Counted from the stretch's first letter, positions 10,818 through 55,541 are shown. The stretch: DNA of 64,000 nucleotides from Obrimoposthia wandeli (GCA_977020255.1 CDROCS010001306.1:310001-374000); one strand, 5' to 3'. Numbers and translations are program-made. The notes: generated from the sequence alone by a model not told the origin.

Positions 10818-10850
10818 TGCTTATATACTATACATCTGAAATCTGATTGG
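10818..10850 (-). promoter_or_regulatory. Putative promoter heading the ATPase-to-capsid gene run: CCAATCAGATT plus TAGTATATAAGCA
   Basis: CCAAT at 10850-10846 and TATA 13-mer at 10830-10818, ~30 nt upstream of the ATG at 10789. The motifs match the polB promoter and 51923-51950. Confidence 0.65.
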
Positions 10851-10860
10851 TTAATAAATA

Positions 10861-11010
10861 CACTGACTAATAAAGACACTAAAGACACTGACTAATAAAG
10901 ACACTGACTAATAAAGACACTGACTAATAAAGACACTGACTAATAAAGACACTGACTAATAAAGACACTGACTAATAAAGACACTGATTAATAAAAACAC
11001 TGATTAAAGA
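10861..11010. repeat. 16-bp tandem repeat (CACTGACTAATAAAGA), ~9 units
   Basis: Six perfect consecutive units at 10886-10981, one at 10861 and two degenerate units at 10982-11010. Confidence 0.95.
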
Positions 11011-11026
11011 TAAAGACGAATAAAAT

Positions 11027-11761
11027 TTACACATGATAACGATTAAAAATACGTATTTGATGAAGCATAGCTTCATTAGGAGCAGCAATAGTCCGTTTAG
11101 CTTTAACAAGATTCGAAGCAGCAGTAACACCAATCGAATGAGATAAAAATGCAATAACAATGCAAGCAGCATGTAAACTACCATAATGACCACATACTAA
11201 AATCTTACCACCATTTTCGATAGTTTCTTTAATTATATTATTAGTCTGTTTATAATACTTCATTATTGTTTCTCCTAATTTTGAGTTTACAAAGACAGAA
11301 GTATATTTTAATTCCTTATAAGATATTTTATCCAGTATATATGTATTGATTACATGAGTGAAATTGGAGTTCAAAAGATTAGTTTCATCAAACCCATCTC
11401 TATAATTACCAATATATAATTGATTTACTAAAATCTCACTCATCGCTGTTTTGTTTAACTTTTCTACATTAAGTTGAGTAAATCTAGCACTAAACAAACT
11501 ATCAAAAAGATGGGTCATGTGGTTCATTTCCATACTCGAAGCATGAGCTATTATGGGTTCCATAAAAGCCAAAGCATTTAAAAAATCTATCCGTCTCTTA
11601 TCTTCAATAATTGGATCTATAATAATTTCTTCTTCTGTCGTCACTTCATCAATAGTTTCTTCTCTTCTTATAACTGTTGTTGTTGTTGGTGGTGGTGATG
11701 ATGTTACTGATGATGTTGCTGGCGATGATGTTGCTTCTGGTGCTGAATTGATTTTCTCCAT
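11027..11761 (-). CDS. Dual-specificity phosphatase-fold protein, predicted catalytically dead (pseudophosphatase)
   Basis: SEIL..QLYIGNY...L....FTHVIN, GGKILV..., IVIAFL and V.AKR..AAPN...QI match the DSP fold. The signature HCxxGxSRS reads CGHYGSLHA. The N-terminus is a Ser/Thr/Pro-rich then acidic extension. Confidence 0.85.
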   Translation of the reverse strand: MEKINSAPEATSSPATSSVTSSPPPTTTTVIRREETIDEVTTEEEIIIDPIIEDKRRIDFLNALAFMEPIIAHASSMEMNHMTHLFDSLFSARFTQLNVEKLNKTAMSEILVNQLYIGNYRDGFDETNLLNSNFTHVINTYILDKISYKELKYTSVFVNSKLGETIMKYYKQTNNIIKETIENGGKILVCGHYGSLHAACIVIAFLSHSIGVTAASNLVKAKRTIAAPNEAMLHQIRIFNRYHV

Positions 11762-11794
11762 TTTATCAATTCCGAGTCAATTTAGTCTTATATA

Positions 11795-12038
11795 TTAAAC
11801 AAGGTTAGATTTCATTGGAGCATCAGTTTCATCATATGATTTGATTGGAGTATTATTCAATCTTTCCATTGTACTTAACATCTCATGTAAATGTAGTTGA
11901 TGACGTAACCTAAAGAGTTAAATAAACTACATATAAATATTACTCATGATTATTTTTCCTAATTAAAGCATTGAGAATAACTGAAGCAAGATCTTTTAAT
12001 GCATCCTGAACCTCTTTACATTCAATAATTTCATCCAT
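11795..12038 (-). CDS. Hypothetical 69-aa two-exon protein
   Basis: Exons 12038-11944 and 11909-11795 are joined in phase by a 34-nt GTAATA...CTTTAG intron (MDEIIECKEVQDALKDL...NNHE/LRHQLHLHEML...SNLV*). It is not in the ORF track. Confidence 0.45.
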
Positions 12039-12079
12039 TTTATGATAAAGCAAATCAAATATTGTTTATAACCCATGAA

Positions 12080-12280
12080 AAATCTATTTTTAGACCACAA
12101 CTATTTGCAACATTACAACGTTTGCAACTATTTGCAAGTAATGACATGTGATGTCTTTGTCTCTAAGATAAATCTATTTTTAGACCACATTACAACTTTT
12201 GCAACATTACAACTATTTGCAACTATTTGCAAGTAATGACATGTGATGTCTTTGTCTCTAAGAGAAATCTATTTTTAAAA
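12080..12280. repeat. ~90-95-bp tandem duplication (~2.2 copies) with internal TTTGCAAC sub-repeats
   Basis: AATCTATTTTT recurs at 12081, 12171 and 12266, and GCAAGTAATGACATGTGATGTCTTTGTCTCTAAGA occurs twice. Confidence 0.85.
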
Positions 12281-12805
12281 CTATTTGATTTAGGAAATAA
12301 ATAACACAAGTGTGAAGATCTATATTAAACAAAATACATTCAATCAGATACTCATAGTTTAAAGATTTAACACCGAGTATCATAATCTTCCCGCTAGCAA
12401 AAATGTTCACGCATAGGGGATTGTATTTGACGTATCGAAGTCCTGGGAAGATTTCTGGCTCGTAAACAGCTTCCGATCCCATACTCTTGCTCATCTTGTT
12501 TAGGTTTATTGATGTTTCTAGATTGCTGCTGAGACTGATTGATTAGATTCTTTCGATTTTTATATCAAAAGGAAGACTGCTTTCATCCAGCACTGTTTTA
12601 CAACCCATTATTCTGCATGTCTTTAAATTGTAATTATATATAAATGTAAAAATAAATTACCAGATTTAAAAATGATAATAGTGTAACCTTCACACTTGAG
12701 TCGATACTGATGAGGCTTTGAAGTCCGAAATGGTAAGTGTTGAATGTTACTTACAACCATTCCCTTGTAATTAATATTCACTAATTTGATATTGTGAAGT
12801 AGCAT
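12258..12805 (-). pseudogene. TATA-binding-protein (TBP)-like gene, two exons, with an in-frame TAA
   Basis: Exon 1 has KLVNINY...TIIIFKSG. Exon 2 has CRIMGCKT...ERI*SISLSSNL..SINLNKM...YEPEIFPGLRY...VNIFASGKIMILGVK, i.e. both TBP repeats. The TAA at 12543-12545 is at an expected Gln. The GTAATT donor is at 12660, but the nearest AG gives an out-of-frame join, so the junction is unresolved. Confidence 0.8.
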
Positions 12806-12862
12806 TTCTGATTATTATAAATTATTATTTTTAGATTGCATGTCTTTGTTTAATTGCCTATG

Positions 12863-13213
12863 CTATGTAAATCTAATATTTCTTACTCGTCTAATGATAA
12901 TTGTCTTGCAATATGGACATGTAATAAAACGATCTGAACATTTAATACACGTGTTTAAGTGTCCACATGGTAAAAATGCCACGGAAAACGCATCGCTCAT
13001 GCAAACAACACATTCGGGATTAGGTAAGAGGTACTCCAGATAATTTATACGTTGTTTTGGTTCAGATTTTATTTCTAAAGATTTTAAATCCGTTATATAC
13101 TCATATATAGAATCATATTTGTTACCGAATGTTTTAAATCTATTAACTAAAACGGCTTTGATTCTATCATGGCTATAATCACGTTTCAGCAAAACTATTT
13201 GACGAGTTTCCAT
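12863..13213 (-). CDS. IAP-type RING finger protein preceded by an IAP-like UBA region, with no BIR domain
   Basis: CVVC...FLPCGH..C..C.....CPYC...I is a C3HC4 RING at the extreme C-terminus. The upstream DYSHDRIKAVL..RFKTFGNKYDSIYEYITDL resembles the XIAP/cIAP UBA. ATG at 13213 (the ORF is open to 13297). Confidence 0.8.
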   Translation of the reverse strand: METRQIVLLKRDYSHDRIKAVLVNRFKTFGNKYDSIYEYITDLKSLEIKSEPKQRINYLEYLLPNPECVVCMSDAFSVAFLPCGHLNTCIKCSDRFITCPYCKTIIIRRVRNIRFT

Positions 13214-13393
13214 CTGAGCATCAATTTCATTATTACTAATATGTGAGCCCTTTAAGGATATGACTAATACTAGACGATAAACAAGAATGTTAACCAATTG
13301 AGACTAATCAATTTTCATAAACAAGAATATCGACCAATTAGAATCGAGCTTTAGAGGATAAACAATTGAATATTTCAATTTATAATTGTCAAT

Positions 13394-13783
13394 ATGAATT
13401 TCGAAAAGCTATATCAACCTATGCATACATATTATGGATATGAGATGGACTTTTTGAAGAAAGCTCATAACTATAATTTTATTTTTCCTGTCAACATCGA
13501 GCCGCTTAAATTTGATTTTGAAATATCAAATTTGACTTCTGTGGATAAAGAGAGAATCAATATTCTCTTGACTCAATTCGGAATCAACTATGCGCTTCAG
13601 GAAAACAAATTCGTAATCAAAGGATCAACTGCCACTTTCAAGCATGAGAATGGAACAATATACGAAGCACCTCCTCCTAAGCTAGAATGGATTATCTCAA
13701 TCAGAATTCAAGGATGCAAGATCGGGCCCAGTGGATTGGAAACACCGATATGGAAAATAATTGATGCTGTTAGAGTTGACTAA
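13394..13783 (+). CDS. Hypothetical 129-aa protein, divergently transcribed
   Basis: Intact ATG-to-stop ORF with globular-looking composition and no recognised family. Confidence 0.6.
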   Translation: MNFEKLYQPMHTYYGYEMDFLKKAHNYNFIFPVNIEPLKFDFEISNLTSVDKERINILLTQFGINYALQENKFVIKGSTATFKHENGTIYEAPPPKLEWIISIRIQGCKIGPSGLETPIWKIIDAVRVD

Positions 13784-13850
13784 TACATTTTTGTGTCTTT
13801 ATTTGTATTATTTTATATATATAAACAATAGTGATACTTTAATATTTATT

Positions 13851-14201
13851 ATGAAAATGACTAAAAAACCTACTAAATCATTAAAGACTAAGGTTAAAAA
13901 GACTATGAGTAAAAAGAAAATCATGGAGGGTTTGGGTATTCATATGATGGCAGCAAATCTTTTAGGTAGATGGTTTGGCGGAGTTGATAAAAAAGCTATA
14001 AAGCACAAAAAAAATGTGGATTATTTGAGAGGTATACAAAATCAGAAACGAGTGCAAAAAGGAGATGGTATACAAAAAGGGGATGGTATGCTTGATATTT
14101 TTGTAAAATTAGATAAACTTACAAAAGCATTTGAAAAGGATCCTAGTGCCTATCTTGGTCCAAAACTAAACTTTTTAGCAAACCAACCAAAAACTTTGTA
14201 A
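13851..14201 (+). CDS. Lys-rich core-like protein with adenain-type sites
   Basis: Basic N-terminus with MEGLG, WFGG and two QKGDG motifs. The ATG at 13851 is preferred over the ORF-track start at 13761. Confidence 0.6.
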   Translation: MKMTKKPTKSLKTKVKKTMSKKKIMEGLGIHMMAANLLGRWFGGVDKKAIKHKKNVDYLRGIQNQKRVQKGDGIQKGDGMLDIFVKLDKLTKAFEKDPSAYLGPKLNFLANQPKTL

Positions 14202-14410
14202 TTACATTGCAATATAGATGCAGAGTGTCTTTGTTAGACACTCACGAATAAATATATATATGTATAAGAATAAATGTTACTATTGATTACATAAAGATGC
14301 AAGTATTTGCAATATAGATGCGTGACTGTCTTTGTTAGATAGATGATTTTCAAAGTAATGATTTTCACAATGATTTTCACAATGATTTTAATAAATGTTT
14401 TTATTTCCAG

Positions 14411-15836
14411 GACTGACTTTCGCGAGTGCTTTCAAATCCCTGCTTCGTCCGGCTTCTTCTTCTTCTCCCGTTGTGCGAGTCGAGCTAATACAGGATCCAG
14501 AAATGTACCGACTCTTCCGGTCTGGGATTCGCGGGGGTATGACATTTGTTAATGGACACCGCGTTGACGCCATCAATGGTACAGAACTTTTGTACATTGA
14601 TGTAAATAATTTGTACGGGTGGGCTATGTCCCAGTTTTTACCTTGTGGTAACTTTTCCTGAGTGACTGATCGGTTAGAGTTGGGGAATATTATTTCCAGC
14701 TTAAAATCAGCAGATTTATCCTGTAGTCGTTTCGCTCATTTATTGGAAATAGATTTATCCATTCCCAACGAGCTTCATAATAAATTCGACGATCTTCCCC
14801 TTGCTCCCATTAAACAGCGTCCACCAGGGTGTAAGACTGAAAAATTGTTATTAACGCATTACCCTAAGAAACATTATGTTGTGCATTCTAGATTGCTACA
14901 AATGTACGTTAGACTTGGTGCTAAGGTAGATTTTGTATATAGAGCAATACAGTTTGAACAAACTAATGTTTTTTCAAAATATATTGAGGATAATTCTCTC
15001 AAAAGAGCTGCAGCTACAACAGATTTCGAGCGGGATTACTACAAACTGAAGGTGAATTCTTTATTTGGAAAACTCATTGAGAATCTGATGAAAAGAATTA
15101 ACCTCCGGATTTGTAATACTCCACAGAAGCTGGTTACCTATTGCAGTAAAGCCCACTTTCGTAGGACAATCGAAATCGATACGGACCTTATTGCAGTTTT
15201 ACTGGATAAGGAAAATATTGTTTTGGATCGTCCTAGTTACATGGGCCAGGCAGTATTAGATTTAAGCAAACTTCGTATGTATGAGCTACAATATGAGCAG
15301 TTGGAGAAATATCGAGTTCAATTTAACTGCGACATTAGAATTATAGCGGGTGACACTGATAGCTTTTTCTTAAAGTGTAATAATGTCAATGTTCAAGAAT
15401 CACTGTTACCTGCTATGATTGCTGATGGACTGTTGGATACCTCGAAATTTCCAAAAACCCATCCGCTTTATACGACGCTTAATACAGCGATAGGAAAATT
15501 TAAAGATGAGAGTAAGGGATTATTTAGTTATAGGCAAGGGATTTTCTACGACCAAAATCATATAGCCTAGAGACTACAGAAGGTGAATCTCAGATGAGAG
15601 CGAAAGGTATTAGTCTCCGACAAACGAGTATTAGGCACTCTAATTACTTAGCCGTATATGAGAGTGGCGTTAGCGAGCGTGTACAACAACAACGTATAAG
15701 CTCGCTAAATCATCAAATTTTTACTGTAAGGTTAAGTAAAATTGCCTTAAGTAGTAGTGATGATAAGCGCAAGTGGGTGGAGAAAAACCGTTCAGTCGCC
15801 TATGGTCACTTTTTATACCCGGACGAGGTTGTATAA
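14411..15836 (+). pseudogene. polB: Second copy of the pPolB polymerase-domain exon inside the right TIR
   Basis: Protein sequence matches the left copy, with the splice acceptor TTTCCAG retained (14404-14410). It has the same TGA (14659-14661) and a private 1-bp deletion at 15542-15545. No copy of the large upstream exon is present. Confidence 0.93.
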
Positions 15837-16225
15837 ACTTTTTATATGTGTTGTACATATTTTTATTCTCCTTTGTGATTTTAAGGAATATATGTGTTTG
15901 AAATACTTGTCTTTATTTACATAAATTTGCAGGTTTTTGCAATATAGATGCAGTACGTGACTGTCTTTGTTAGATCGATATAGGAACGTTTAAACATGAT
16001 TATCAAATTATATAATACTTTATTTTATAAGTAGATAGTTTAATTTAATTTAGTTTAAATAAATTTATCAAATTATATAATACTTTATTTTATAAGTAGA
16101 TAATTTAATTTAAATTATATAACACACACACACACTAGATGTATTTTGTTGAAATGGTGTTAATACAGTCTTTAGATAAAAAAGATATATAGATTTAAAG
16201 AATGTTACTAAAAATAGATTATTTT

Positions 16226-16648
16226 TGACCTCACCGTGACCTTAAGTTGTCCTCATGACGTCATGACCTTAAGTTGACCTTAAAGTACATTGACCTTAAC
16301 TTGACTTGACCTCATGAGGTCATGACCTACATATTGTCCTCACCGTGACCTTAAGTTGTCCTCACCGTGACCTTAAGTTGACCTCATGAGGTCATGTCCT
16401 CACCGTGACCTTAATCTGTGCTCAAGGGGGGGGGGGTATGCTCAAAATGTCTTTGTCCTGAAAGACACACATCCCCCTACTTGATGTGTGTCTTTCAGGA
16501 CAAAGACATTTTTCCTGAGCATAGGGGGGGTCATGACCTCATGAGGTCATGACCTAGATTTTTCCCATGACCTCATGAGGTCATGACCTACATCTTGACC
16601 TCACCGTGACCTTAACTTGACCTACATTTTTTGTCCTCAACTTGACCT
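16226..16648. promoter_or_regulatory. Subterminal array of TGACCT/AGGTCA hexamers and palindromes
   Basis: By eye, ~19 TGACCT plus 4 AGGTCA in ~425 bp. AGGTCATGACCT is at 16317, 16544 and 16578, a 26-bp perfect palindrome at 16529-16554, and TGACGTCA at 16256. Function is inferred, not shown. Confidence 0.7.
16437..16523. repeat. Perfect 30-bp hairpin with 9-nt loop, flanked by G-runs
   Basis: 16444-16473 is the exact reverse complement of 16483-16512. An outer stem TATGCTCA/TGAGCATA is present, with G11 at 16426-16436 and G7 at 16524-16530. Confidence 0.95.
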
Positions 16649-19331
16649 TAAAAATTTTGTCCTCAGGAGGGGGGGCTTTGTGCCAGAAGTGCTACATCTA
16701 CCTACTCACCTAGACGGATACAGCAAGCAGTGGCGAGGAAGACGAAAAGGGCTGGGAAGTCTACCACCAATATGCTCACATCTGCCGAGGTGGTGAATGA
16801 AACGACAGGAGATTTTCCCATCTCTAATGGTCGACGGGCCCATATTGTACGAGAGGATCCCAGTCTCTCCGATTGAATTTAGTCTTCTTCCCAGCCGACG
16901 TCGCCTTCAAGAGACCTCATTTACGCTCCCTATAGTTCAGCAGCCATCGAGCCTCAGTCAAAACTAGGCGAGAGCTTGAGAGGCTGCGTCTTCTCTTCCT
17001 ATGGCATTATTAAGCCAGAATTTGAAGATGGCCTAACTCGATGCTGGGTTGCATGAGCTCCTGGCAGTACTGGAGACTCCATAACAACCGGTCGTGTATC
17101 TAGTTTCAAATAGGCAAGAGGATACGGTGGCATGTAGGCTGGAGCGTGAAAGAAGGAAAATTAAGAAAGCTCCATGGAAGAGGAAGGCTTCAATACCATC
17201 ACCTTCGTCTGGACCATCTACATCGGCTGCACCGCCTCCACGTTGCAGGAACTCCTGCCAAAACCGCCAGAGACGGCAATTGATGCACAACAACCAGCAG
17301 TTGTACAGCCGAATAAGAAGGAGCCAGTACCGCTCCCGCCAATACCACTACGTCGGAAGTATATATATTTTATACTTTAATTTTATGATAAAAATATTTT
17401 TTAAATATGCATTTAAAAAAATTATTTAATAGTAGATAATTGATTTTTCTTTTAATAAACAATATTTATTAAAAAAATTTAAGTCTTTTTCATATTTTTT
17501 AAAATTAATTTATAATGAAGACATAAATTTTAGTTATAATGCTTGTAACTTAAAGATGCTTTCTTAATTAATTTAACTACATTAATTAGTTATTGATTTA
17601 ATAAAGTGTACCAGAGATATAAAATTGTTAGTTAAATAGAATATATTCTTTTATAGGAAGTAATTGGATTAAAAAAATCTCAAATTTATATAAATATGTT
17701 CAACTTTATTTATCACTTCATTATTAAAAAAAGGAATTTACTCAAATGAAGAAGCTTGTGACAACGATAGAGGAGAATGTCCGAAAGGATACAAAGACAG
17801 GTGGAGATTCAGTAGAGGAGACAAACTGAACGAAGAAGGCGGAATTGGAGAAACGACAATTGGCCGAAAAAAAGAAAGGTGGATATGGAAAATAAACATC
17901 GAGCTGAGAGAAAAAATATCCTTCAAATTCAAACAGAAAAAGGGCCTTCTGGAATTTTTTTTATAAAAATATTTTTTTGATTTTATTTATTTGTTACAAT
18001 TATTTTTATTAAATAAATATTTGAAATAACCAAACAAAATATAAACAATTTTATATATGAGGATTCCATAAGATGAATGATGAGTTTTTTTGAATAACTT
18101 ATACATTAAATTGTCTCCTGACTTAGTGGAAGATTACGTTATTTTTTTCAATAAACGACACTCCAGAAAGTGTTGCAAATAAAATTACCAATTTACTTTC
18201 AAACTATTTAGGTAGAATTACATTTCATATAATATTCTTAGGATAATTAAAAATATATAACAATATTAACGAGAAAAAATTAATTGCGATCCTGCACGCG
18301 TTAGTCCTCAGGTGGCCCCTCAGGTATTTTCTCACTCTGTGAGTGCACTATGATATTTTCAGTTTTAAGGGGTCTTAAATGGAGTTAATTTGTATTTTAT
18401 GGTTGTGGGGCGCAGAGTTGTAAAAAACACTTATACATTACTTTATGTAATTCATAAAGTCCTATATAATGATTTAGTGGCTGTAGTATGGACAAATTGG
18501 GGAATTTCAGAAACTATACGGTAAGCCATAAGTCGTAGGGACGTGCTCAAAATCGCGTTTGATGAAATTCAAGTATCCTATGCGCTTAATCTTCGAATTT
18601 CAGTTCGCCACCTTGACCACTGTACCATCCACCGCCTAAAAAACTGCACTTGTACATTTGAAAAGTGTATATATGCCTGAGGACATATTTAGATTTCAAT
18701 CTCACTCCAAACACATGCACGAAATTTCACTCAACACACATGCACGGTTTTAAAGGACAGTGGTACCCCATGGGAAAGAGGCGGTGGATTAGACCAGACA
18801 TATTCACCTACTAATGTTTAAATGTTATTTAATCATATACACTTATTTTGATTTTGACTTGTTTTTGTAGTCCCAAGTCTATTTCAGTATGTAGAATTTG
18901 ATGACATAATAAGGGTTAAGGAGACAGCATTTGTCTACATGTACCGAAATGAATGGCATCTTTTGTGATAGTCAAGAAAACTCTGACGCACAAACATTGC
19001 AAATCTTTGAGGGCCATGTACAAAACAACTTTTAATATAACTTAAATTTTGTACTGACAATTGATGTATCAATTACAGGGTTGTTTAATTAATAACTTAC
19101 AAATGTTCATTTTAGAAACATTGAATTTTACAATAAAACAAAGGTAGGTACTGAGTCGTGTATTAATTTATATACAGTTTTCTATAAGCATACTTATTAT
19201 AGAAGATACAAAATTTGAAGTACATGAGTATCGATATTTGTTTTGTGTGCTTCATCACTTCTTTTTTTTCAGCTCAGCAACTTAATTATTTTAATGGGTT
19301 ATTTACATTTTGATATTGTTAGCCGATACCG

Positions 19332-31044: not shown

Positions 31045-34000
31045 ACGTATACATAATTCAAAAGAGTCAGATTCTACAAACACAATATATAGTTATACAT
31101 GTATATAGCTAGTTTATAAACATATAATATCGGTAGGAAATTTCCGATTTCTGATTACATAACTATCTACTTCACTATTCAAACTTTCACTTCCTCAGAA
31201 ATTCGATTCTCATGGGGAGGATTCCTTTTGAAAACTGAATTAATACATGTCGTGGACTTAAAAACTATATTATTCTATATGGACCTTCATCCAGCTCGTT
31301 ACGCTAACTTCTTTGGATTTAATTCTTTTTAACAAGAACATTTTCATTAACTTCAAATATCCTTTCCCCTCTTCTTTAATTATTTAACTTTTCTGACTTT
31401 TCAGCAGCGATTTGTTGGTTCTTTCTTACGTCTTGAATGATACTTTCTTTATTGATGTTTGAATTTTTCTTTATCTTCCTTAAATGATTTCAAATTATGA
31501 ATGTTATGAAGAACTATTTATTGTTGCATTTATAAAAAATTTAATTTGTGGCAATATATCGTGCCAGCATTTTCCTATTTTAGTAGATACTATTGTCGTA
31601 ACAAACATATCTCTTACCAGGAGTATAACTCTTTCTGCTAGATCGTTAGCTTGATGTTGGTATGGTGCTTAAATAACAAATTTTCGTAGCCAATTCTGAG
31701 AGTAATTTTCATTAAATATTTGTCCCCTATTTGTTAAAATACTCCAAAGTTTCTAAAATTTATATATCCCATTCGTCTCGAGTGTAAAATTGTTATTTCA
31801 TTTTTTGTAGTTACTGATATTGATACAAGTTTACTAAATCAATCGATTACTATCAACATATATTTCATTTTAGATCTCTTTCCTTAATCTGGACTATATC
31901 GACAACTATTTCATCTAAACTTTTTTGACAAAGATTATATATTTATTTTGTTCTGGTATTTCAATTTTTCTTTTTGCACAATAAACACATTTTGATATGC
32001 ATTCTTTTATTTCTTGAAATATTTCTTTCAAATATAAATTATCTTTCATATATGTAGTTATAAAGCTTTTGCATTCCTAGGTGAAAAATATATTGAATTT
32101 CATTATTGATTTTATTAGCGTTCTTCGGATATAAAATAAATAATTCTGTAGATTTTGATTTAAATAAAGGATATCCTCACAGAGTTTAAGTTTCTTTTGT
32201 CTGTTAAATCGAACTTCTTTAGCATTCTTCTGATAAATCTCTACTTTTTAGTGGGAGAAAAACTTTCATTTCTTTTACGTGAATAACGTTGTTATATTTT
32301 TCTAATCTTGCTCAAGAAGCTTTCTTCATTTAGTGAGTGAATATATATGTATTTTAGATCTTTTCTCTAGTGCGTCCATATGTTTAGTTTAACACTGATC
32401 ACAGACAGTTTCATTCAATCTTGTTCTAACTTAAAATTAGATTCTGATAAATTTGCCAACCATGTTTGAAATTAAGGACTAATTGGTTTTTTTGTTGTCG
32501 TCAAAAACACTAATGCTTTATTATCTGTTCTTGTCAAATATTCTGTTTCATATAAATATTGCTTAAGCGCATAATAAATTCGTATGCTGTTTAAAATTAT
32601 TTTCCGATAAAACAATAGCCTTTTTCATGAAAAGTCAAATGACTTGAAGCGTATATAATCCCTTTTTCGTTTCTCATTTCATCCAGTTGGCTCAATACTT
32701 TTACAATCGAAAAAGCTTACGTTTGTATCAGTTATAACTTTTCGATTTCGCCCTGGAAAGTCTATTATGGGAGCTGTTGTTGATTTTTCTTTGAGGAGTG
32801 AAAAAACTTGTTTTACAATCCGGTGCCCATTGTATTGACTTCTTATCTCCAGAACGCGCCACATAAAGTGAAGCGGCAATTTTGGAATAATTTTTAACAA
32901 ATTACAAATAATAGTTTTTCATTCCTAAGATTTCCGCTACATTTTGGTTATTTGAAATTTTTAATTTAGTTCACTTTTGACTGATTTGTATATATTCCGC
33001 TTTCTGTTATGGTATGACCTAGGAATTTTAACTGTTTCTGATAAATACAGCATTTATGAGGGTTTATTTTGATGCCTGCAGCTGCAATTATTTGAATACT
33101 TATCTTTATAATTTATAATGTTCTTCTTGGTTGTTACTATAAACAAGGATACCATCTAGATATATAATTGTGCCTTTGAACAACAAACCATCCAACATTT
33201 TATGCACCAGACTCTGGAATGTTGCTGATGCTGTAGTCAACCAAAATGGCAACCGATTGAAACAAAATCGTCTGAGTTTTGTACAGGAAGCAGTTTTTGT
33301 CAGAGACCCATTCTCTATGTCTACCTGATAATAAGATTGTTCATTATCTAGTGTCGTAAATATTTTTGCATTACCCAGACAATCGAACAAGATTTGTGCA
33401 TCCGGTATTAGAAATGTAAACTTCTTGGTTACAGCATTTAGTTGTCTGTAGTAAACACATATTCGAATTGTATATTCTGGCTCCTTCACAATGACCAATG
33501 GCAAGTTCCAAGAACTTTTACAATGCCTAATTATGTTTAATTTCAGTAAATTTTCATCGATTTCTTCAATTTGGATTTCTAATGCACTGGTTGCCGTCTA
33601 GTATTTTAACAAATTGAATCAACAATAGTCTCAATTTTATGGGAGATAATTTTGGTATATCCTAGATCACATAAATCATTTCCCAACTCCTCAATATAAT
33701 GTTCTAGAATTGAGTCTCTATTGCATTTTAAAGAATTACATATTATACCTGTTCTTTCTTTCGAGGAAAATCTTTTAATCATGCTAGACAAGTCCAAATT
33801 AAATAATTTCTGCAGCTTTATCCCAACTGCTTTCATTATATCGATTCCATCAATAAAATCTTATTTAATTTCTTCTACAACGATTATTTCCAAAGTTTGA
33901 TCCTTTCCATTCCAAAATACTTTACTATTAAACCTACCCATTGTTGTTGATGACTACTCGAAAAACTCCACTCAGATATAAATTACTATGTCTCATTTTG

Positions 34001-37100: not shown

Positions 37101-38255
37101 TTACTGGGCGCGGATGGTACATTGGTTAAGGTTACAACCTGAAATTAGAAGATGTTTTATCCCATTTTAAAATCTTTAAAACTAAAAATTTCATAGTGCA
37201 CCCATAGAGTGCTGACGAGGGAGGGGTGGATTAGAGCGGACACATCCACCTATCAGTATATTTGCTTTCTACATAGAAGTAGCCTGCAATATTATTGATT
37301 TTTCATTATAATCGTCAATATCTGTCATATCTATCATAGGAGTGAATTATTATTAAAATCTAATAGTGAAAAAAACTATTAAGAAATATTACTTACCCAG
37401 TTTAAATAACATTCCAGAAGTCAATTTTATCTTTATGAATATTTGTCCTTATAAATTCCCTATGTTTTCTTTTGAAAATTTGATCTTCGTAAATCTCAAC
37501 TGATATTATACTTCATCAAATTTTGAAATAGAAGGAATTTTTACTGTTAATAAACAACATTTTATATAAAATATAGAATAAAAACTATAATGGTGCTAAA
37601 TCAAAATTTGTTCATTTTTCAAATAAGCCAAAAAAATTATCCTATTAATAATACAGAAAGTGTCACTTAGGAACCATTTAACATCAGAAATATTAGTTTT
37701 ATTCACTTATATCAAAACAAATGTAAACAAAAATATGATACGTTCTTTCTAATTTTAAAAAGCAAAATAAGGTACGTGATAAATTTAAAAATAAGGAAGA
37801 AATACAAAAAGTTCAATTTTAATGAAATATAATTTGAGCTGTTCTTCAAATATTCTTTTAAGCACGCATAACCGTACATCTCATGCATGTTGGGCTTAAG
37901 AAATGTTTTTCTATTTTTGCTTTTACCATTTTATTTGTAATATTCGTTTGATGACCATGAATGGCGTTTAAAATACACGCTTTAAGTTTAATAAAAACTG
38001 CAGGAAAATGGAAAATTGTGTTGCCTTATTTTGCATCAGGTATAATTATGAGAAATTTTGGAGAGAAAATAAAAAAAAACTGAATGTAATATTTTAGAAT
38101 TATTTTAAACTTTAAATGTTTTGTCATATATATCGAGAGAAGAAACTGCAAAGCGTCATTGTGGTACTGTTTCTGATAAGTCTCAAATATGAAGCTGCAA
38201 TTTTCTTTAAAGTGACCTCTAAATGAGCCCTTAATGACCTTGAGACGTCACTTAC

Positions 38256-38569
38256 CTCGATGTTGTTGGCACGTACGGCTGTTGGAGCTGTGGCAATGTT
38301 GCGTCTATAGGTGCGGCGTACTGCCCAGATAATGACCTCCATACAGGACACCATACAAGAGGCCACCAATCCAAACAGAAGTCCGAAAAAGGCGCCACCC
38401 ATCTTTTCGAGACCCAGCTGATTGCGAACAGTGGAAGAGTGAGAGTTGTGCTCGAAGCAGGACTTTGTCAGGTTGAACTTCATGAGCCACTCTCGACGGA
38501 ACTTTTCTAACAGCTGATCCTTTTGCAGCCTCAAGATGCCCTCCGAGAGAATGTCACGCAGAACATTGT
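38256..38569 (-). CDS. Ionotropic glutamate receptor exon: end of S2 and M4
   Basis: LRDILSEGILRLQ...W...C...LGLEKMGGAFFGLLFGL. Acceptor GCAG at 38570 (phase 1) and donor GTAAGT at 38255 (phase 0). Confidence 0.88.
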
Positions 38570-38833
38570 CTGCACAACGCACCGAAGACCGGTGATTTGG
38601 CAAATATTAACAAATAATGAAAATATAGTAGGTGTCATAAAAGATGAACAACCGTTTTTATATCGTTTTAAAGTTATACTAAAAGTTTTATCCAAAAATG
38701 ACACTGAATTTGATGACAAAAAAATCGATAAATTTAATATCCCTTTATCATTTTCTCTAATGAATACGTCATTCCAAATTTTGTCGTTAATGTCGTTTTC
38801 TAGAGAAAAGAAAATCTGCACTCTTAGGAGAAG

Positions 38834-44810: not shown

Positions 44811-45448
44811 GTGTAGAGGCTACTTTAGTTTGTCGTGTTTTTGAATAAAATTTAGTATCATATTGTTCCAGTCTTACATTAACATAATTTGTTAATATGA
44901 TGTAAATTAATATATGTTTTATGTAATTTTGTGTTCTTTCTTTTTAATATTAATCTAAATTGTAATCTACAATTTTAATATGCGAAACTGTTATAATCTA
45001 TCGTTTGTAACAACATTTACATATTTTGAATCTGTATTAATTTCTGCACGTTTAAATACCTAACCCGATAACTCTAAACAAACATATATTTTGTAGCATC
45101 ATATATGTCTTTTACATGTACTTTGTTTATTTTAAGTTATTGTTGCATTTCTTAAACAAAGGGTTTTGAAATAAAAGTATTTATTATGTATTATTAGTTC
45201 TAAATTAGCTTCATTATTATCTTATAATAAAATAAAAACTATTATATATTACATTAATTAAGAGATAGAAATTTTACAATTCTAAAAAAATATAATAACA
45301 CAATGTTTCAAACAGTAGGTGATAAGTATAATTTATTCTGGTTAGAAATTCAAAAATGTATTCGCTGAATATGGAATGAATGCGTAACCCAGAATTTATG
45401 CGATTCGATTAGATGCCTTTTCGCATATATCTACAAAGTGTAACTTAC

Positions 45449-45674
45449 TGCCGGAAGCGAGGCCTATGGCATATCCTCTTGAATCGAGTAGTCCGCCGAG
45501 TGGCATGAGGCTACACTTTCGCTGTGTGTAGTACTCGTTGAGGGAAGACTCTAGGATGAAAGCGTAATTTCCCTCGAGCGCTCGTTCGATCCCATCCTTA
45601 GTCGAGTCTACGAACACACTACGGTCGTTGTTCATGAAGTTCCACATCCGCTTATACGTGCTGATGTTGGAGTT
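45449..45674 (-). CDS. Ionotropic glutamate receptor exon: S2 ligand-binding segment
   Basis: YKRMWNFM...VFV.ST.DGIER...NYAFILES..NEYYTQRKC.L..LGGLLDSRGYAIG. Acceptor ACAG at 45675 (phase 0) and donor GTAAGT at 45448 (phase 1). Confidence 0.93.
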
Positions 45675-48600
45675 CTGTACACAAACAAAAGTCAAGTAAA
45701 GTGAAATACGTGAATTTTTATGAAAATTATCATTTTTAGAAATTCCTCCAGATTAGTGTAATTAAATACCAGAGTAGTTATTTCAATTTTCAAACAGATG
45801 CATGATCTGTACTAGCATCTGTAGATTGTGGGTGAGAGTGGCGTATAAATTCCAATATATGGTAGATGGAATAAGTTACAGGTTCTCCGTTGGAGAAATT
45901 TTCCTTGAAAATATGTTCAGTCACTCAACTTAACTCATCCTCAAACATAGAGACAAATGGTACCCCCGACAATTTTCATCTTCCTCATAATTTGCTTACA
46001 ACTTAAGTTAAACTTGGTCAACATGAAAATGATGAAATTCAAATTCCAGAAAGGATAGAAGTAAAGTTAACGTTCCATCTTACTCTATGATACATCATTA
46101 CAACTGAACAATTGGATGATTGGATAGACTTGAGGCCAATGTTAATTTCTGCAAGACCTCAATTAGAGGTAAAAATGGTCTTTTTCCATATTCATTATTA
46201 ATGTATCACTAGTGAACAACTATTAACAAACAGATGGATCTCAATGTATTCAAAACACAGAAAGAACCTTTTACACACCTGCCTGATGATGACTAATATA
46301 TGTTTAGTTAATTAAAATTCAATTTGAATTTGGAAAATTGGGCCTTGAGGTTTTATGTTGCACCTTAGAAATGGTAAACGGTATTTTGGCATCGTTGTTT
46401 TTATGCGTACTTATTGTTGGGTTTCGAATAAAAAAAATAAAAGACTGAATTGTACCAATTTTAATTCTTGAAGATGTCATTAGAAACTAAAGATCAGAGA
46501 AATCATACAACCACTATCTTTATCATTACAAGTTTATCATGTTAGTCATTTTATTGACCTTATTGAGTCAGAAGAGGTGTCGCACGAATGCAAAAAGGGT
46601 TTAAAAGAAATTCATATAAAACATGTTTTCTTAGATTTCATACAAATTTGAAAGCTTGAAATTTTTTAAAATATTTTCATGATGTAAATATTGTAAACTT
46701 TTTATTTCAAATTATATTCATACAAGAAACAATATAACACATATTTCAGTTTAATACATTATTTTTGATAGCGAAAATGAATGGGTTAACATATTAAAAA
46801 TAGGAGTTTGAAAAACTTTGCGTCAGCCCCTAAATAAAAAAATATAATTCCAATATCTTTATTGTGTAAAATGTACTATTTTTTATTTATCAGTAATACA
46901 TTTCTGTATAACGTAACATTAACCTCTCAATATTTTTGCTTAAACAACAAAGTTTGTTATATGAAAAGAAAAATGAAGTTAACTGAATAAATATTATTTA
47001 TATCGAAATAATGTTGACATGTACTTCTTGCAAAAAATATTTAATTTATATGAAAACATGTTAAATTTATTTTTATTTTATTTAGTCCTTCGGATGTGTA
47101 GCAGGTGGCCAGTTCCAACTCTGATACATTAGCGTGAAATACATTGATAAGATGTCAAATAAAATTGATAAATTAATTAATATATAAATATATTTTGAAA
47201 ATAACCAATAGTTAGAGCAGAAATTTAGGCACTAATCCTCTTTGACGTTTCTTTGATCTGACTATTCTCGGTTCAGAAACTGAAATATTAAGCTATTTGA
47301 ATAAATGTTTCTTCAGCCTTATTTCCAGTATTTTGTTATTTTTAAACGTTAGTCTACAATTATAACTTACCAGGGAACATTCTCCGTGGCAAGTCTTGTT
47401 AAATTCAATTTTTGTAACGTTTAAAACAAAATATTATCAGCGAAAATTTAAAAAAATCTTCTCATGCAATCTGAAACCCCATGGAATATCTTGACATCAT
47501 ATAATTCTCCACTATTATATAAATATCTAAAGTAAAGGATTACATATGCATTAAATTACCTGTTATAGGAAAGATCCTTCGTTGTATGTACACTCAAAGA
47601 AACTTACTGGCCAACAGTCCTCAATTACAGAAAGGGCAAAACGGTAGGTAAGATAATCGATGACTAACATTACAATGAGTCTTAATTTAAAAAGAAGTAA
47701 GATAAAATGTCTACCAAAGTAAACAACACTAAAATAGGTCAGAAAGTTCTAAAAATATTTAAAAACAAGGTTTGACTTTCCCGAGTGCATTTGGGATTTT
47801 TCGATCAAAATATATTTTGAATTGATGCTTCTAATCACTACCAGTATTACCGACGCGTTTTTCCTTCGGGCATTGTCTGATAGTAATGAAATACATAATG
47901 TTGATAACCTTCTTCTGAACTAGAATAAATTCTGAAGTTTAAATGTGTGAAACGATCGACATCTGAACTGATCTGCATTTTCTCCCAATCTAAATGTAAA
48001 TGAAAACATTTGGGGTTTACTTATTTATATGATTCAATTTTGAAAATAATTATGCCTGATATATCTTTTCTGATTTGAAATCTGAATCCTCATCATATTT
48101 GAACATACAAATATTCAAAAATTAGTCAGTTATTAATACTTGAAGATTGAAAGCACCGATCAAATCACTTTAACATGCTTCTTGGTTCAACATTTTGGTA
48201 AATAATTTGATTACAGTTCAAGCTACAAAAAACTGCTTGCATAAGGTTCTATTCTGAGAGGTCCTTTAAAACAGTGTTTCTCTGAATAATGTTTGATTAT
48301 TAGACTCCTGCACTATATTAATAAATGCTTTCTTATCTTGTTATCTTCATTTTATTTATTGGCATATCTTGATTTAAAAGAAGTTCAAATAAATAAAAGA
48401 AGGCGTATACAATGTGTGAACAATTTATGAAAAAATCCCGAAATTGAGATACTGTTAGTTAAGTGCAAATTACTATTGGTACATGTAAAATGTAAAAATA
48501 AACCTATGAATATTTCTAGTAATCTGATATGTTAAAGTTTTTACTTCGTTTTCCACTCTAAACTAACCGCGATTTTAGTAAAGATAAAACAATAAATCGA

Positions 48601-51049
48601 TTTATCGATTTATAAATGTAAGCAAAATTTTCCAGGTTACAATTTATAAATTTTCTGCATTTATTTAAAGTTTGTCAACATTAACATGGTGTGTGTTTCC
48701 GGGAATTTTATTGTTTGCAATTCATTTGTTATAGTCAATAAATAAACCAATTTCCTTGGAAATATTAGGGCAAGCAATTATGATGAACGTTACAATTTTA
48801 TTGATAATCTTTTATGAATTGAAATGTACATGAGTGTTATTATCCTTTAAAGCTTGAGATCAGTTGAACACGGGGATATGATGGCAGTTATTATGGTGGA
48901 GTTAACTACTCACAAAAGATAATAAATAGAAAATGTCTATTGCGATAAATATCGTTTAAAATAAATTTTGAATTTTTCGGTTTTTCTTAAATTTTTTGAA
49001 GCATTTCATTTCTATTTTGTCGGTTTTTCAAAAGTAAAGTATATTTTACTGATAAAAAGTAATTTTTACATGTAATTAATTAAATGTTTCAAAAACTAAA
49101 TCCGATTAATATAACTTATAAACGTATTTGAAATCAATGTAAAATTTCGACCAAGTAAAGTTAATATATTCAATAAAAAAAGTTCTAAATTGAATGGTCT
49201 GTGTAATTAGAAATAAATTATAGAAATATGATAAGCATTTACATTTTTATTTTTTCACATTCTATATTTAATAAAGTTTAAAGATTTACAAATTAAATTT
49301 TAGTCAAAATTGTATTTTTCAACTTGTTTTGATTATCAGCTAAATGAAGCTTAGGTGATCATGCAAAAGAAAGAAACTGATAAAATGGGTCAACAAACTG
49401 AAATTCTAAACCAAACTTATTAATTGCTCACAATGAATGAAGAATTTAATTTCCTCGTCAGATTTTACGACAGGATAAAGATTTTATTAAATGAGGTAGC
49501 TTTCTGATAAAAGAAAAGTAACTTAGATGAGCCATATAAGTACCGTTACTACTGACACAATTTGCTAAATGATGGGAAGAGAAATTAAGTTATAAAAAAA
49601 TATGGAAGGTAGTTTATTGGCCATTTATTAGTTTTGAGAAAATTGGTTACAATACGATAGTAAATTAAAACAATATGTATTGTGTATCAAAATATATTAA
49701 ATCAAGAATTGCTATCATTTTATATCCAAAATAGTGTGAGAAATTAAAACAAAATTTAAACATAATTTAAAGAATGAAAATAAATTAAAACTTGTAATAA
49801 ATGTATATAAAAAATTTCCATTTTCCATATCCCTTAAATACGAAATAATTCAAATCTTTTACTAAGATTAAAGAGTCTTTTCAACAAATATATATTTATT
49901 TTTGATCTAAATTCAAATCAAATATGTGATTTCTAATCACATTATTAAGACAAACTTCTTCACCTCCCCAGCTCGTGGCTGTTGTCACGGGCTCAAAAGT
50001 TTAATATCCAGTCACTGGATTCTTGCCAGGAGGGACGGCGAGAATTCCGATGGGGCCGCGTAGGGGTGGTTATTGTTGGTTGATCGGCTGAGCGTGGAGT
50101 TGTCGATTGAATCAGGGTCGTCGACAGGATTGGTGGGACCTCAACATGAATTTTACAAGGAGTGGCTTTTACTGATGGCAATATTGAGGATGTAGATTCT
50201 GCGGTTGACTGCAACGTCGGTGCAACCTCTCTGTTGATTGTTTTACCGTCATGTTCCACGATCACTGGCGGATTATTTCTCGGAAGTGAGGCTGTGTGCT
50301 GACTGACACGCACTTCATGCAATGAAGACGAAGAGGACCTCACTATATCTGTGGAGAAGGAAATGAACTGACGGAGGTATTTCCGATTTCTAATAGTGAC
50401 TCGCCGGATCCATCGATTTTGATGCAATACTTGTCATGATCTTACACTTCCGTCACCATGCCTGTTCTATCCCAGCTTTTGGTGTTATTACGACTCGATC
50501 CATATACATGACGGCGCCATCGGATACATATAGGGCCTCGCGGAATTGCCATTATAGTGCAGCACGAGACAAGTTCTTTTCAGTCTCAGGGAAATCATTT
50601 TCAACGGTTTGTAGGAGCGCGCGCATCTGAGAATCCTTAAACTTTTCTCGGAAATCCTGGACCATGGGAGTGACGCAATCTCAGCCGTTTCCTGTTGGAT
50701 TGCAGCGGTGAGGGCGTGTTTCAGTTGATCGTCAAGACCGATTGGGTCAAGTGAAGTGGAGGGCGATGGATGTCGAGACGTGGCATCGGCGGTTAGGTTT
50801 GATTTTCCTGGCATATGCATGATTGAGAATTGCCACGGAAGAGTGCGTTGCTTGAGTCTGAAAAGTCTGGTATTGCTGATCTCGTCGAGTGTGCGGTCAC
50901 CGAAATTTTTCACTAATGGTTTGTGGTCAGTGACGACCAAGAGGTCGTCGCATCCTTGTGTGAAGAAACGGGTTTACTCCACACCACACGCGATGGCAAG
51001 CGCTTTGAAATTATGTATCAGAGAGAAACCGGAAGCCGGCCAGAATAAT

Positions 51050-54600: not shown

Positions 54601-55082
54601 ATCTTTATTACACGGAGGAATCCTTTAAATATGTTGAAGAGAAATCCAATTAGTGCATCTACCATATAAGAAACCATGAAAACTTTATTGACGCGTTGGC
54701 ACATAAGAATCGTCAGTAAATACAACTTATTTGTTCTGAAAGTAATTTTGTCCTTAAACTAAAATCAAAGAAAATTTATAGAAATATGGGTAAATTCATT
54801 GAAAAATGATCAATTATTTACATTATTCTAAAAATCCTTGGTAAATTTATCTTCTAATCTATAAATTGACTGAAAATCGAACTTTCTAATTCGAAATTTA
54901 CATTATTCAGAAAAATTACACAGTAAATTCATTTGTCAACTAAAATCCTTATAAATGATATAAGATTCAACTTTGCATCTTAATTTACATTATTCTGAAA
55001 TATACACGATATAAAGTATTCTAAATCCATAAATATAAACATAAAATGATTAAAAATCGAATTTTTATATCCAAATTAGAAT

Positions 55083-55541
55083 TTTTTTCTAAAGTGTCAT
55101 AATGTAGACTTGCAAGCTACACTGTTGTTTGCAATGATTTCAGATGGATTATTAGACACATCAAAATTTTCTATAAACTATCCTTTAGCCAATACTGCGA
55201 TAGGCAAGTTTAAGGATGAGAGTAAGCAATGTAGATATAAGCAATGGGTATTTTTACGCTCCAAATCATATAGCTTAGAAACTATAGACGGAAAGTCCCA
55301 GATGAAAGCAAAGGGAATTAGTGTTAAGCAGACTGTGCTACGCCATGCGAATTATTTAGCTGCATATGATAGTGAACGAGTGCAACAACAACGCATTAGT
55401 TCAATTAATCACCAGCTCTATACCGTAAATATGAGTAAGATCGCATTGAGTAGCAATGACGATGAGAGAAAATGGGTAGAGAAAAACCGGTCAGTTGTCT
55501 ATGGAGATCATAGATATCCAGATGATTTTTCACTTGAATAA
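55083..55541 (+). pseudogene. polB: pPolB C-terminal fragment of the second Maverick
   Basis: FFLKCHNV...DGLLDTSKF...NTAIGKFKDESK...LRSKSYSLE...KAKGIS...ERVQQQRISS...KWVEKNRSV is roughly two-thirds identical by eye to 460-900, and is truncated just after the DTDS motif position. Confidence 0.92.

Follow-up and report, generated by a model that had tools for sequence, protein, structure and literature searches.

The co-oriented gene block at 11,027 to 13,297 in the 64,000-nucleotide stretch of the Obrimoposthia wandeli genome analysed here (the window) is probably the variable region of a decayed Maverick, in which a TBP-like protein found lineage-wide (mini-TBP), likely a late switch, stands beside unrelated cargo that was likely exchanged with a giant Gypsy retrotransposon. 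The original prediction had described a compact host-takeover cassette of ubiquitin ligase, TBP-like factor, microprotein and pseudophosphatase; as a unit this cassette fails, and the two features of it that stood out most reflect damage to the window copy. The lasting interest lies in a lineage-wide viral TBP, a promoter box that matches it, a conserved intron, and cargo held in common with a giant retrotransposon.

The host element, a Maverick/Polinton copy of 16,938 bp, starts 232 bp ahead of the window. It has terminal inverted repeats with AG..CT ends (AGTAG..CTACT) and a 6-bp target duplication, CACCTA, at both flanks, and its protein-primed PolB (PF03175) and retroviral-type integrase (PF00665) both score above cut-off. 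The packaging ATPase has a P-loop and a weak Pox_A32 match, and the putative capsid and protease genes, which gave no Pfam match, are named from their position and motifs. At least 150 sister copies of the 16.9-kb element are present in the host genome, where a DNA search with 11027-13300 as query gave 49 matches from 40 scored candidates, and of these matches 41 are long, at 95-100% identity. The inverted repeat of the window copy reaches ~2.2 kb (338-1952 and 14345-15960) owing to a duplication of the 3' part of PolB at its right end; in L065 and L174, the two sisters compared, the repeat at that place is short. The features of the element lie in the window as follows:

1 to 16706, no strand: Maverick/Polinton host element with pPolB, integrase, ATPase, capsid genes and protease, several core genes frameshifted
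6923 to 6928, minus strand: ATAAAC box upstream of the major capsid gene, inside upstream coding sequence
10496 to 10501, minus strand: ATAAAC box upstream of the packaging ATPase
10852 to 11007, no strand: tandem array of ten 16-bp units that separates the DSP gene from the 92-aa gene
11027 to 11761, minus strand: pseudophosphatase of DSP fold, 244 aa, PF00782 E 1e-12, ORF intact in the window copy
11787 to 11794, minus strand: canonical TATA box TATATAAG of the DSP gene
11795 to 12038, minus strand: candidate 70-aa microprotein (exon 12038-11944, possible 34-nt GT..AG intron 11943-11910, exon 11909-11795)
12064 to 12069, minus strand: ATAAAC box upstream of the candidate microprotein
12080 to 12277, no strand: 95-bp tandem duplication, non-coding, part of which resembles sequence upstream of the IAP gene in sisters
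12258 to 12622, minus strand: mini-TBP exon 2, complete C-terminal TBP repeat, with an in-frame stop in the window copy
12623 to 12660, minus strand: mini-TBP intron, 38 nt, phase 1, acceptor lost in the window copy
12661 to 12805, minus strand: mini-TBP exon 1, remodelled N-terminal repeat, dN/dS 0.08-0.13
12863 to 13243, minus strand: 3' remnant of the IAP gene (UBA-like region and C3HC4 RING), with BIR, start codon and TATA box deleted in the window copy
13243, no strand: junction of a ~925-bp copy-specific deletion, from sister alignment and contig ends
13358 to 13363, plus strand: ATAAAC box preceding the divergent 129-aa gene, which often neighbours mini-TBP

The co-orientation stands, as the RING, TBP-like and DSP ORFs are all on the minus strand, bounded by the divergent 129-aa gene on one side and the 16-bp array on the other, with the microprotein a candidate only. 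It was also correct to see here accessory genes of a Maverick, among them an IAP-type RING, a factor resembling TBP and a pseudophosphatase; the idea that the IAP is a stripped-down derivative does not hold. The 116-aa RING ORF (12863-13213, minus strand; PF13920, E 5e-12; IAP-type) had been taken for an IAP without BIR, and alignment to sisters places the ~925-bp deficit of the window copy, which removed the BIR domain, at 13243. The distance from the divergent gene to the RING start is 188 bp here against 1,068-1,178 bp in 17 measurable sisters (2 of the 19 lack the anchor), and BIR DNA is kept in 19/19 sisters, with an unbroken 333-aa BIR..RING ORF in seven of them. In sister L003 both BIR (PF00653, E 2e-13, with Cys/Cys/His/Cys ligands) and RING exceed the Pfam cut-offs. 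DNA contigs (four runs of one sample, kind unrecorded) end exactly at 13243 from both sides and run into the missing sequence; that none among the matches listed bridges the junction is uninformative about this single copy. With BIR DNA in the sisters and a deletion in this copy, a ligase that evolved to be BIR-less is rejected. The TATA box that belonged to the IAP lies within the deleted part, so the remnant is likely silent in the window copy, and the divergent promoter that had been placed at ~13300-13390 is just one edge of an intergenic stretch. In two inspected copies (L173:5660-6200 and L174:6060-6590) the IAP is missing entirely, with TBP and DSP kept; in such variants, of which match patterns indicate four, the mini-TBP gene stands behind the IAP's TATA box.

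The second break affects the TBP-like gene: it has two exons, and in the window copy it is a pseudogene because the intron acceptor is lost and exon 2 carries a stop at 12545-12543. The pieces on the minus strand of the window match PF00352 at E 5e-8, the sister gene at 6e-13, and among the 19 sisters exon 2 is open in 18, the donor GT present in 18 and the acceptor AG in all. A phase-1 GT..AG intron of unrelated sequence interrupts the same Gly codon in family 2 (L177), in family 3 (four loci and L178), in a fourth family (L055, L058, L060) and in metagenome contig L077; the exceptions are L057, which has no intron, and L053, which is deleted there. Intronless homologues of 150-160 aa are colinear across the site. 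An assembly frameshift as the cause of the split is ruled out by this identical intron site across families. Judged from the sequence, the conserved short intron indicates that these genes would pass through host Pol II and the spliceosome.

The residue pattern was surveyed in 108 members of the mini-TBP family, with positions in yeast TBP numbering. The equivalents of F116, F190 and F207 are kept in 103, 107 and 107 of the 108, F99 is missing in 107, and the replacements are V122 to Arg (102/108), T124 to Met (107/108) and L205 to Asn (106/108), with Ser or Thr at N159 in 107. The two full repeats, four intercalating Phe and two Asn of a canonical TBP are not all found in mini-TBP, which shares with cellular TBP/TRF2 the C-terminal repeat with its YEPE stirrup; the acidic TFIIB stirrup is retained, its Glu residues being kept in 97 and 106 of the 108. 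The numbering agrees with Table 1 of PMC12529657, where the stirrup is given slightly differently (E184/E188). In the subclade of the window the N-lobe helix is shortened, and the AlphaFold model of mini-TBP is of middling quality, with a pLDDT of 74 and a TM of about 0.37 to TBP.

A profile search returned 52 clusters at E<=1e-30; at E<=1e-10 there were 509, cellular TBPs among them. The tree comprised 76 proteins, of which 61 came from the 108 family candidates and 15 were cellular or other TBPs (animal TBP, TRF2 and herpes proteins lie outside the sample); 60 fell on one side of a 100/100 branch and P0138 grouped with the canonical TBPs. On this tree mini-TBP is a clade of its own outside the sampled cellular clades and not a recent host capture. 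Phylogenies against host paralogues had been suggested gene by gene, and the TBP tree speaks against a recent copy from the host. A recent copy of host TBP was also rejected on gene structure, as the host TBP is canonical and its observed introns lie at other sites; one host TBP gene has a 46-nt intron. This short intron, the Burro-like elements and a GC content of about 30% make a planarian-type flatworm the probable host. At least four TBP/TRF-type loci (L151-L156) are present in the host itself, and two of these form a head-to-head pair within 2 kb. One distant Polinton contig, which sits in a bacterial MAG (L225:10650-11200), encodes a canonical-like 183-aa TBP, probably a separate TBP capture, and, judging by a motif, a dUTPase-like ORF.

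The genes of the window fall into two promoter classes: TATATAAG precedes the IAP (in the sister), the DSP and the 92-aa gene, and ATAAAC precedes the ATPase, PZ, MCP, exo169, the 129- and 145-aa genes, the microprotein and PolB. We counted the box at 23 hand-picked loci, dropping starts without ATG and near-identical upstream regions and excluding the integrase, penton and 120-aa gene, where it is less regular or further upstream. ATAAAC lies at -28 to -50 in 26 of 27 upstream regions of ATPase, MCP, PZ and exo169 and in 0/17 of the mini-TBP gene itself, and it is the top hexamer without prior choice. By gene the counts are 11/11 for the ATPase (all distinct mini-TBP-bearing elements), 7/8 for MCP, 5/5 for exo169 and 3/3 for PZ, each reached by 0/2000 shuffles. 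The box persists in elements whose ATPase is just ~40% identical. The PZ and MCP boxes sit in upstream coding sequence (YKQ, INK), so that protein constraint may help to keep them, and the ATPase and exo169 boxes are mostly intergenic. TATAWAWR was found in 6/17 mini-TBP upstream regions (shuffle mean 0.63), a strict TATA box being missing from the tested interval of the other 11, the window family among them. The early/late split is not clean, since the family-3 IAP and the family-2 92-aa gene carry ATAAAC. Five distant Polinton contigs without mini-TBP, one with a canonical-like TBP, lack ATAAAC before the ATPase (5/5), a small, non-independent control from one distant clade in which three contigs come from one MAG, some are short or broken and a mini-TBP may have been missed. 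A sixth, L228, is rearranged and was set aside, and scans of viral contigs for further Maverick controls gave none usable, with one short contig and five distant TBP loci.

A box before the structural genes and not before the TBP gene suggests a late-promoter switch of herpesvirus type, and on balance we favour one that is encoded by the element itself and still uses host TFIIB. In TBP the 3' half-site, in which C is disfavoured, is read by the N-lobe, and L205 is one of the positions that set specificity (PMC1636458); the reading draws on the fact that in mini-TBP the N-lobe is the remodelled one, and the invariant C of the box falls in that 3' half. From these patterns we infer an order of expression in which host TBP and Pol II would transcribe the TATA-box genes first (IAP, DSP and, in many families, mini-TBP), the canonical TATA boxes of IAP and DSP fitting early expression. 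Mini-TBP would then bind the ATAAAC boxes, whose 3' half holds a C unfavourable to normal TBP; with its acidic stirrup still in place it would bring in host TFIIB and switch on the ATPase, capsid and core genes. The TBP-like factor, which had been thought to act on host transcription initiation, looks aimed instead at the element's own promoters. It would be a natural altered-specificity TBP, and together with its matching box would make a concrete, testable switch from silent passenger to particle production, which argues that Mavericks may be autonomous nuclear viruses with staged gene expression.

The best surviving alternative, which we consider unlikely, is that recognition of the box falls to a host factor (TBP, a paralogue of TRF type or a Forkhead protein) or to a helper virus, and that mini-TBP has another job. 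Most boxes read TATAAACA, and the TATAAAC of 20 of the 26 is a sequence that host TBP or a paralogue could perhaps use, the host has its several TBP/TRF loci to draw on, ATAAACA fits the Forkhead consensus, and the promoter motifs of virophages are tied to helper giant viruses. However, 6 of the 26 boxes lack the first T, position 1 of the box is A in 26/26 where Forkhead sites prefer G, the box is missing in the five contigs without mini-TBP, and the changes in mini-TBP map to the lobe that faces the altered base.

The self-encoded switch has a close parallel in the beta- and gammaherpesviruses, which use a viral TBP and a TATT box for their late genes (PMC4893493). There too (EBV BcRF1, KSHV ORF24, HCMV UL87) a virus-encoded TBP fold is paired with a non-canonical TATA box before structural genes, and both proteins are substituted at the positions of V122, T124, V161 and L205 (PMC12529657, Table 1). 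The Maverick protein differs in being a stand-alone chain of 150-170 aa with clear TBP sequence similarity, in keeping the TFIIB-binding acids that ORF24 lacks and losing the F99 that ORF24 keeps, in its box, (T)ATAAACA, and in that no five-protein vPIC is evident. It thus falls outside the herpes family, whose members are large multi-domain proteins of a six-member complex with the acids lost, and its origin is probably independent.

Less likely again is a single early host-takeover module in which mini-TBP would act as a decoy, titrating TFIIB or obstructing the promoters of the host. It is favoured by the retained TFIIB-binding acids, by the TATA boxes of IAP and DSP, by the adjacency of IAP and TBP in three families (IAP-TBP-DSP in two), and by selection: between families 1 and 2 pairwise dN/dS of natural copies is 0.30 for the IAP, 0.32 for the DSP and 0.08-0.19 for the TBP exons, comparable to 0.155 for the ATPase, with 0.31 for the 92-aa gene and 0.77 for the 129-aa gene, values that decay after insertion biases upward, and on these estimates all three genes are under purifying selection. 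The predicted co-occurrence and synteny break down, however. All four genes are together in the window family only; family 2 (~75% identical; 12 loci inspected, several with deletions) has IAP-TBP-DSP without the microprotein; family 3 has TBP-IAP in swapped order (IAP 41%) without DSP; and TBP stands without IAP or DSP in 9/9 further loci of the host genome, about four families. The best 20 of the 80 metagenome TBP loci returned, many of 1-7 kb, show no IAP or DSP match (20/20). The TBP-like gene is thus spread lineage-wide, the IAP in 3 families and the phosphatase in 2, the IAP being also gone from the two inspected copies above and two more by match pattern. A decoy, moreover, would need neither new DNA-contact residues fixed across the family nor a matching promoter box. 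The 129-aa gene (13394-13783), of no known family, adjoins mini-TBP in many elements, its dN/dS coming from one pair, and is a possible mini-TBP cofactor.

The description of the DSP as lacking catalysis proved right: where an active dual-specificity phosphatase has HCxxGxxR, the loop reads CGHYGSLH in the window and 18/19 sisters and YGHYGSLH in the remaining one, the catalytic Cys and Arg positions are replaced in alignment to DUSP19, and the dead motif recurs in family 2 under the purifying selection given above. The protein has an N-terminal extension of ~110 aa and matches the STYX chain 2r0b (E 6.5e-7); a single-sequence structure model (pLDDT 34) was uninformative. In the STYX pseudophosphatase the catalytic Cys is replaced by Gly, as in the Maverick DSP, which differs in lacking the Arg too; an active Gypsy DSP is closer to it than any chain in the PDB. 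The microprotein consists of frames of 32 and 38 codons that can be joined in phase across the 34-nt GT..AG stretch; it gave no Pfam match and was not found in family 2, so the predicted gene is family-specific and a candidate only. The DNA upstream of it matches the DSP start of family 2, and it is weakly colinear with the DSP N-terminal extension (exon-wise shuffle p 0.0125, 0.04, 0.19 and 0.0025 in four comparisons); it probably arose by partial duplication of the 5' end of the DSP gene and has since drifted.

The closest relatives found for the cargo lie in a giant Gypsy polyprotein of the same genome, present in at least 150 copies (L261/L262 = G000:C399:421001-441000, L167, L170) with Env, an IAP block, and DSPs after the integrase. 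An ORF of up to 4,309 aa combines a zinc knuckle and a fusion glycoprotein with BIR, RING, protease and RT, and a 4,633-aa copy carries the IAP block (97% identical) and an active followed by a degenerate DSP. IAP residues 4-329 align to the BIR..RING block of this Gag-Env-Pol polyprotein at 32% identity (E 1e-45), scoring 147 bits where the best PDB chain reaches 71 and a survivin-like exon of the host 35, and the DSP scores 61 bits against a copy of the polyprotein and 42 against DUSP19. The Gypsy domains thus outscore PDB chains and the two host BIR exons seen, in a comparison that barely samples host IAP and DSP genes, transposon copies having saturated the searches. Word-index homologue searches for DSP and IAP returned nothing at E<=0.001, which is not evidence of absence. 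The family-3 IAP scores 256 bits with the window family and only 147 with the Gypsy block, which is consistent with one gain in a Maverick ancestor. IAP and phosphatase were likely exchanged, in either direction, with the giant Gypsy of the same host, and would indicate that genes pass between an LTR retrotransposon and an element of DNA-virus type. As cargo, the IAP would serve cell survival, and the pseudophosphatase would hold phosphoproteins that it does not turn over. Least probable of all is that the cargo is kept for a benefit to the host cell (stem-cell survival) while the element is chromosomal, and not for virus production: the planarian Burro retrotransposons have BIR, RING and BCL2 domains (PMC6431247) and the DSP gene alone has at least 150 copies 98-100% identical, but the IAP ORF is broken in 12/19 sisters, as neutral decay after insertion predicts, and the selection is seen between families.

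Going beyond the block, we put at slightly better than even the proposal that a large animal Maverick lineage runs its own early-to-late cascade, independent of herpesviruses, by one re-specified 150-aa TBP and an ATAAAC promoter, and swaps anti-apoptotic and phosphatase cargo with giant retrotransposons in the same nucleus. Adintoviruses and other animal Mavericks (Starrett et al. 2021, PMC8502044) likewise have pPolB, integrase, ATPase, capsid, protease and terminal repeats, and IAPs in these viruses are already published there (section 3.2), together with Bcl2 homologues. TBP occurs as a label in the legend of Fig. 5, which may or may not be the mini-TBP family; the portions of text considered here describe no TBP family, promoter box, intron or phosphatase, and the supplement, whose remaining parts may bear on novelty, has no match for 'TBP' in the part considered. 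In the open-access literature as far as covered, Maverick, Polinton and TBP came together only in Starrett et al. (two versions), as that figure-legend label, and a 2026 preprint on these viruses has 0 matches for TBP or TATA. Burro, a giant Gypsy of planarians, has a polyprotein with Gag, in-frame Env, BIR/RING, protease and RT (PMC6431247), as in the host's element; the Maverick IAP and DSP differ in being separate genes, with TATA boxes, of an element that resembles a DNA virus. The word 'phosphatase' has 0 occurrences in PMC6431247, and PMC11410931 gave one passage on Burro and none on Mavericks.

Some smaller observations concern the element and its surroundings. At about 4520-4590 (minus strand) the PolB gene appears to begin with an ATG that a short GTAAG..TAG intron follows immediately, with an ATAAAC box upstream, and L050 and L221 are similar. 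The motif WAAAGACA is not clearly enriched window-wide (19 versus 11.8; 5/100 shuffles). The word ACAAAGACA occurs 11 times in the element (positions including 326, 1962, 12152, 12247, 12841, 14226, 14327 and 15962), often beside CATG or TTGCAA words, against once in the other 47 kb, and is a possible host-factor site. Outside the element lie remains of other transposons (33106-33597 and 50488-50973), a PolB fragment (55080-55541) and, at 38124-38606 and 45396-45752, exons, identified by motifs, of a host ionotropic glutamate receptor-like gene.
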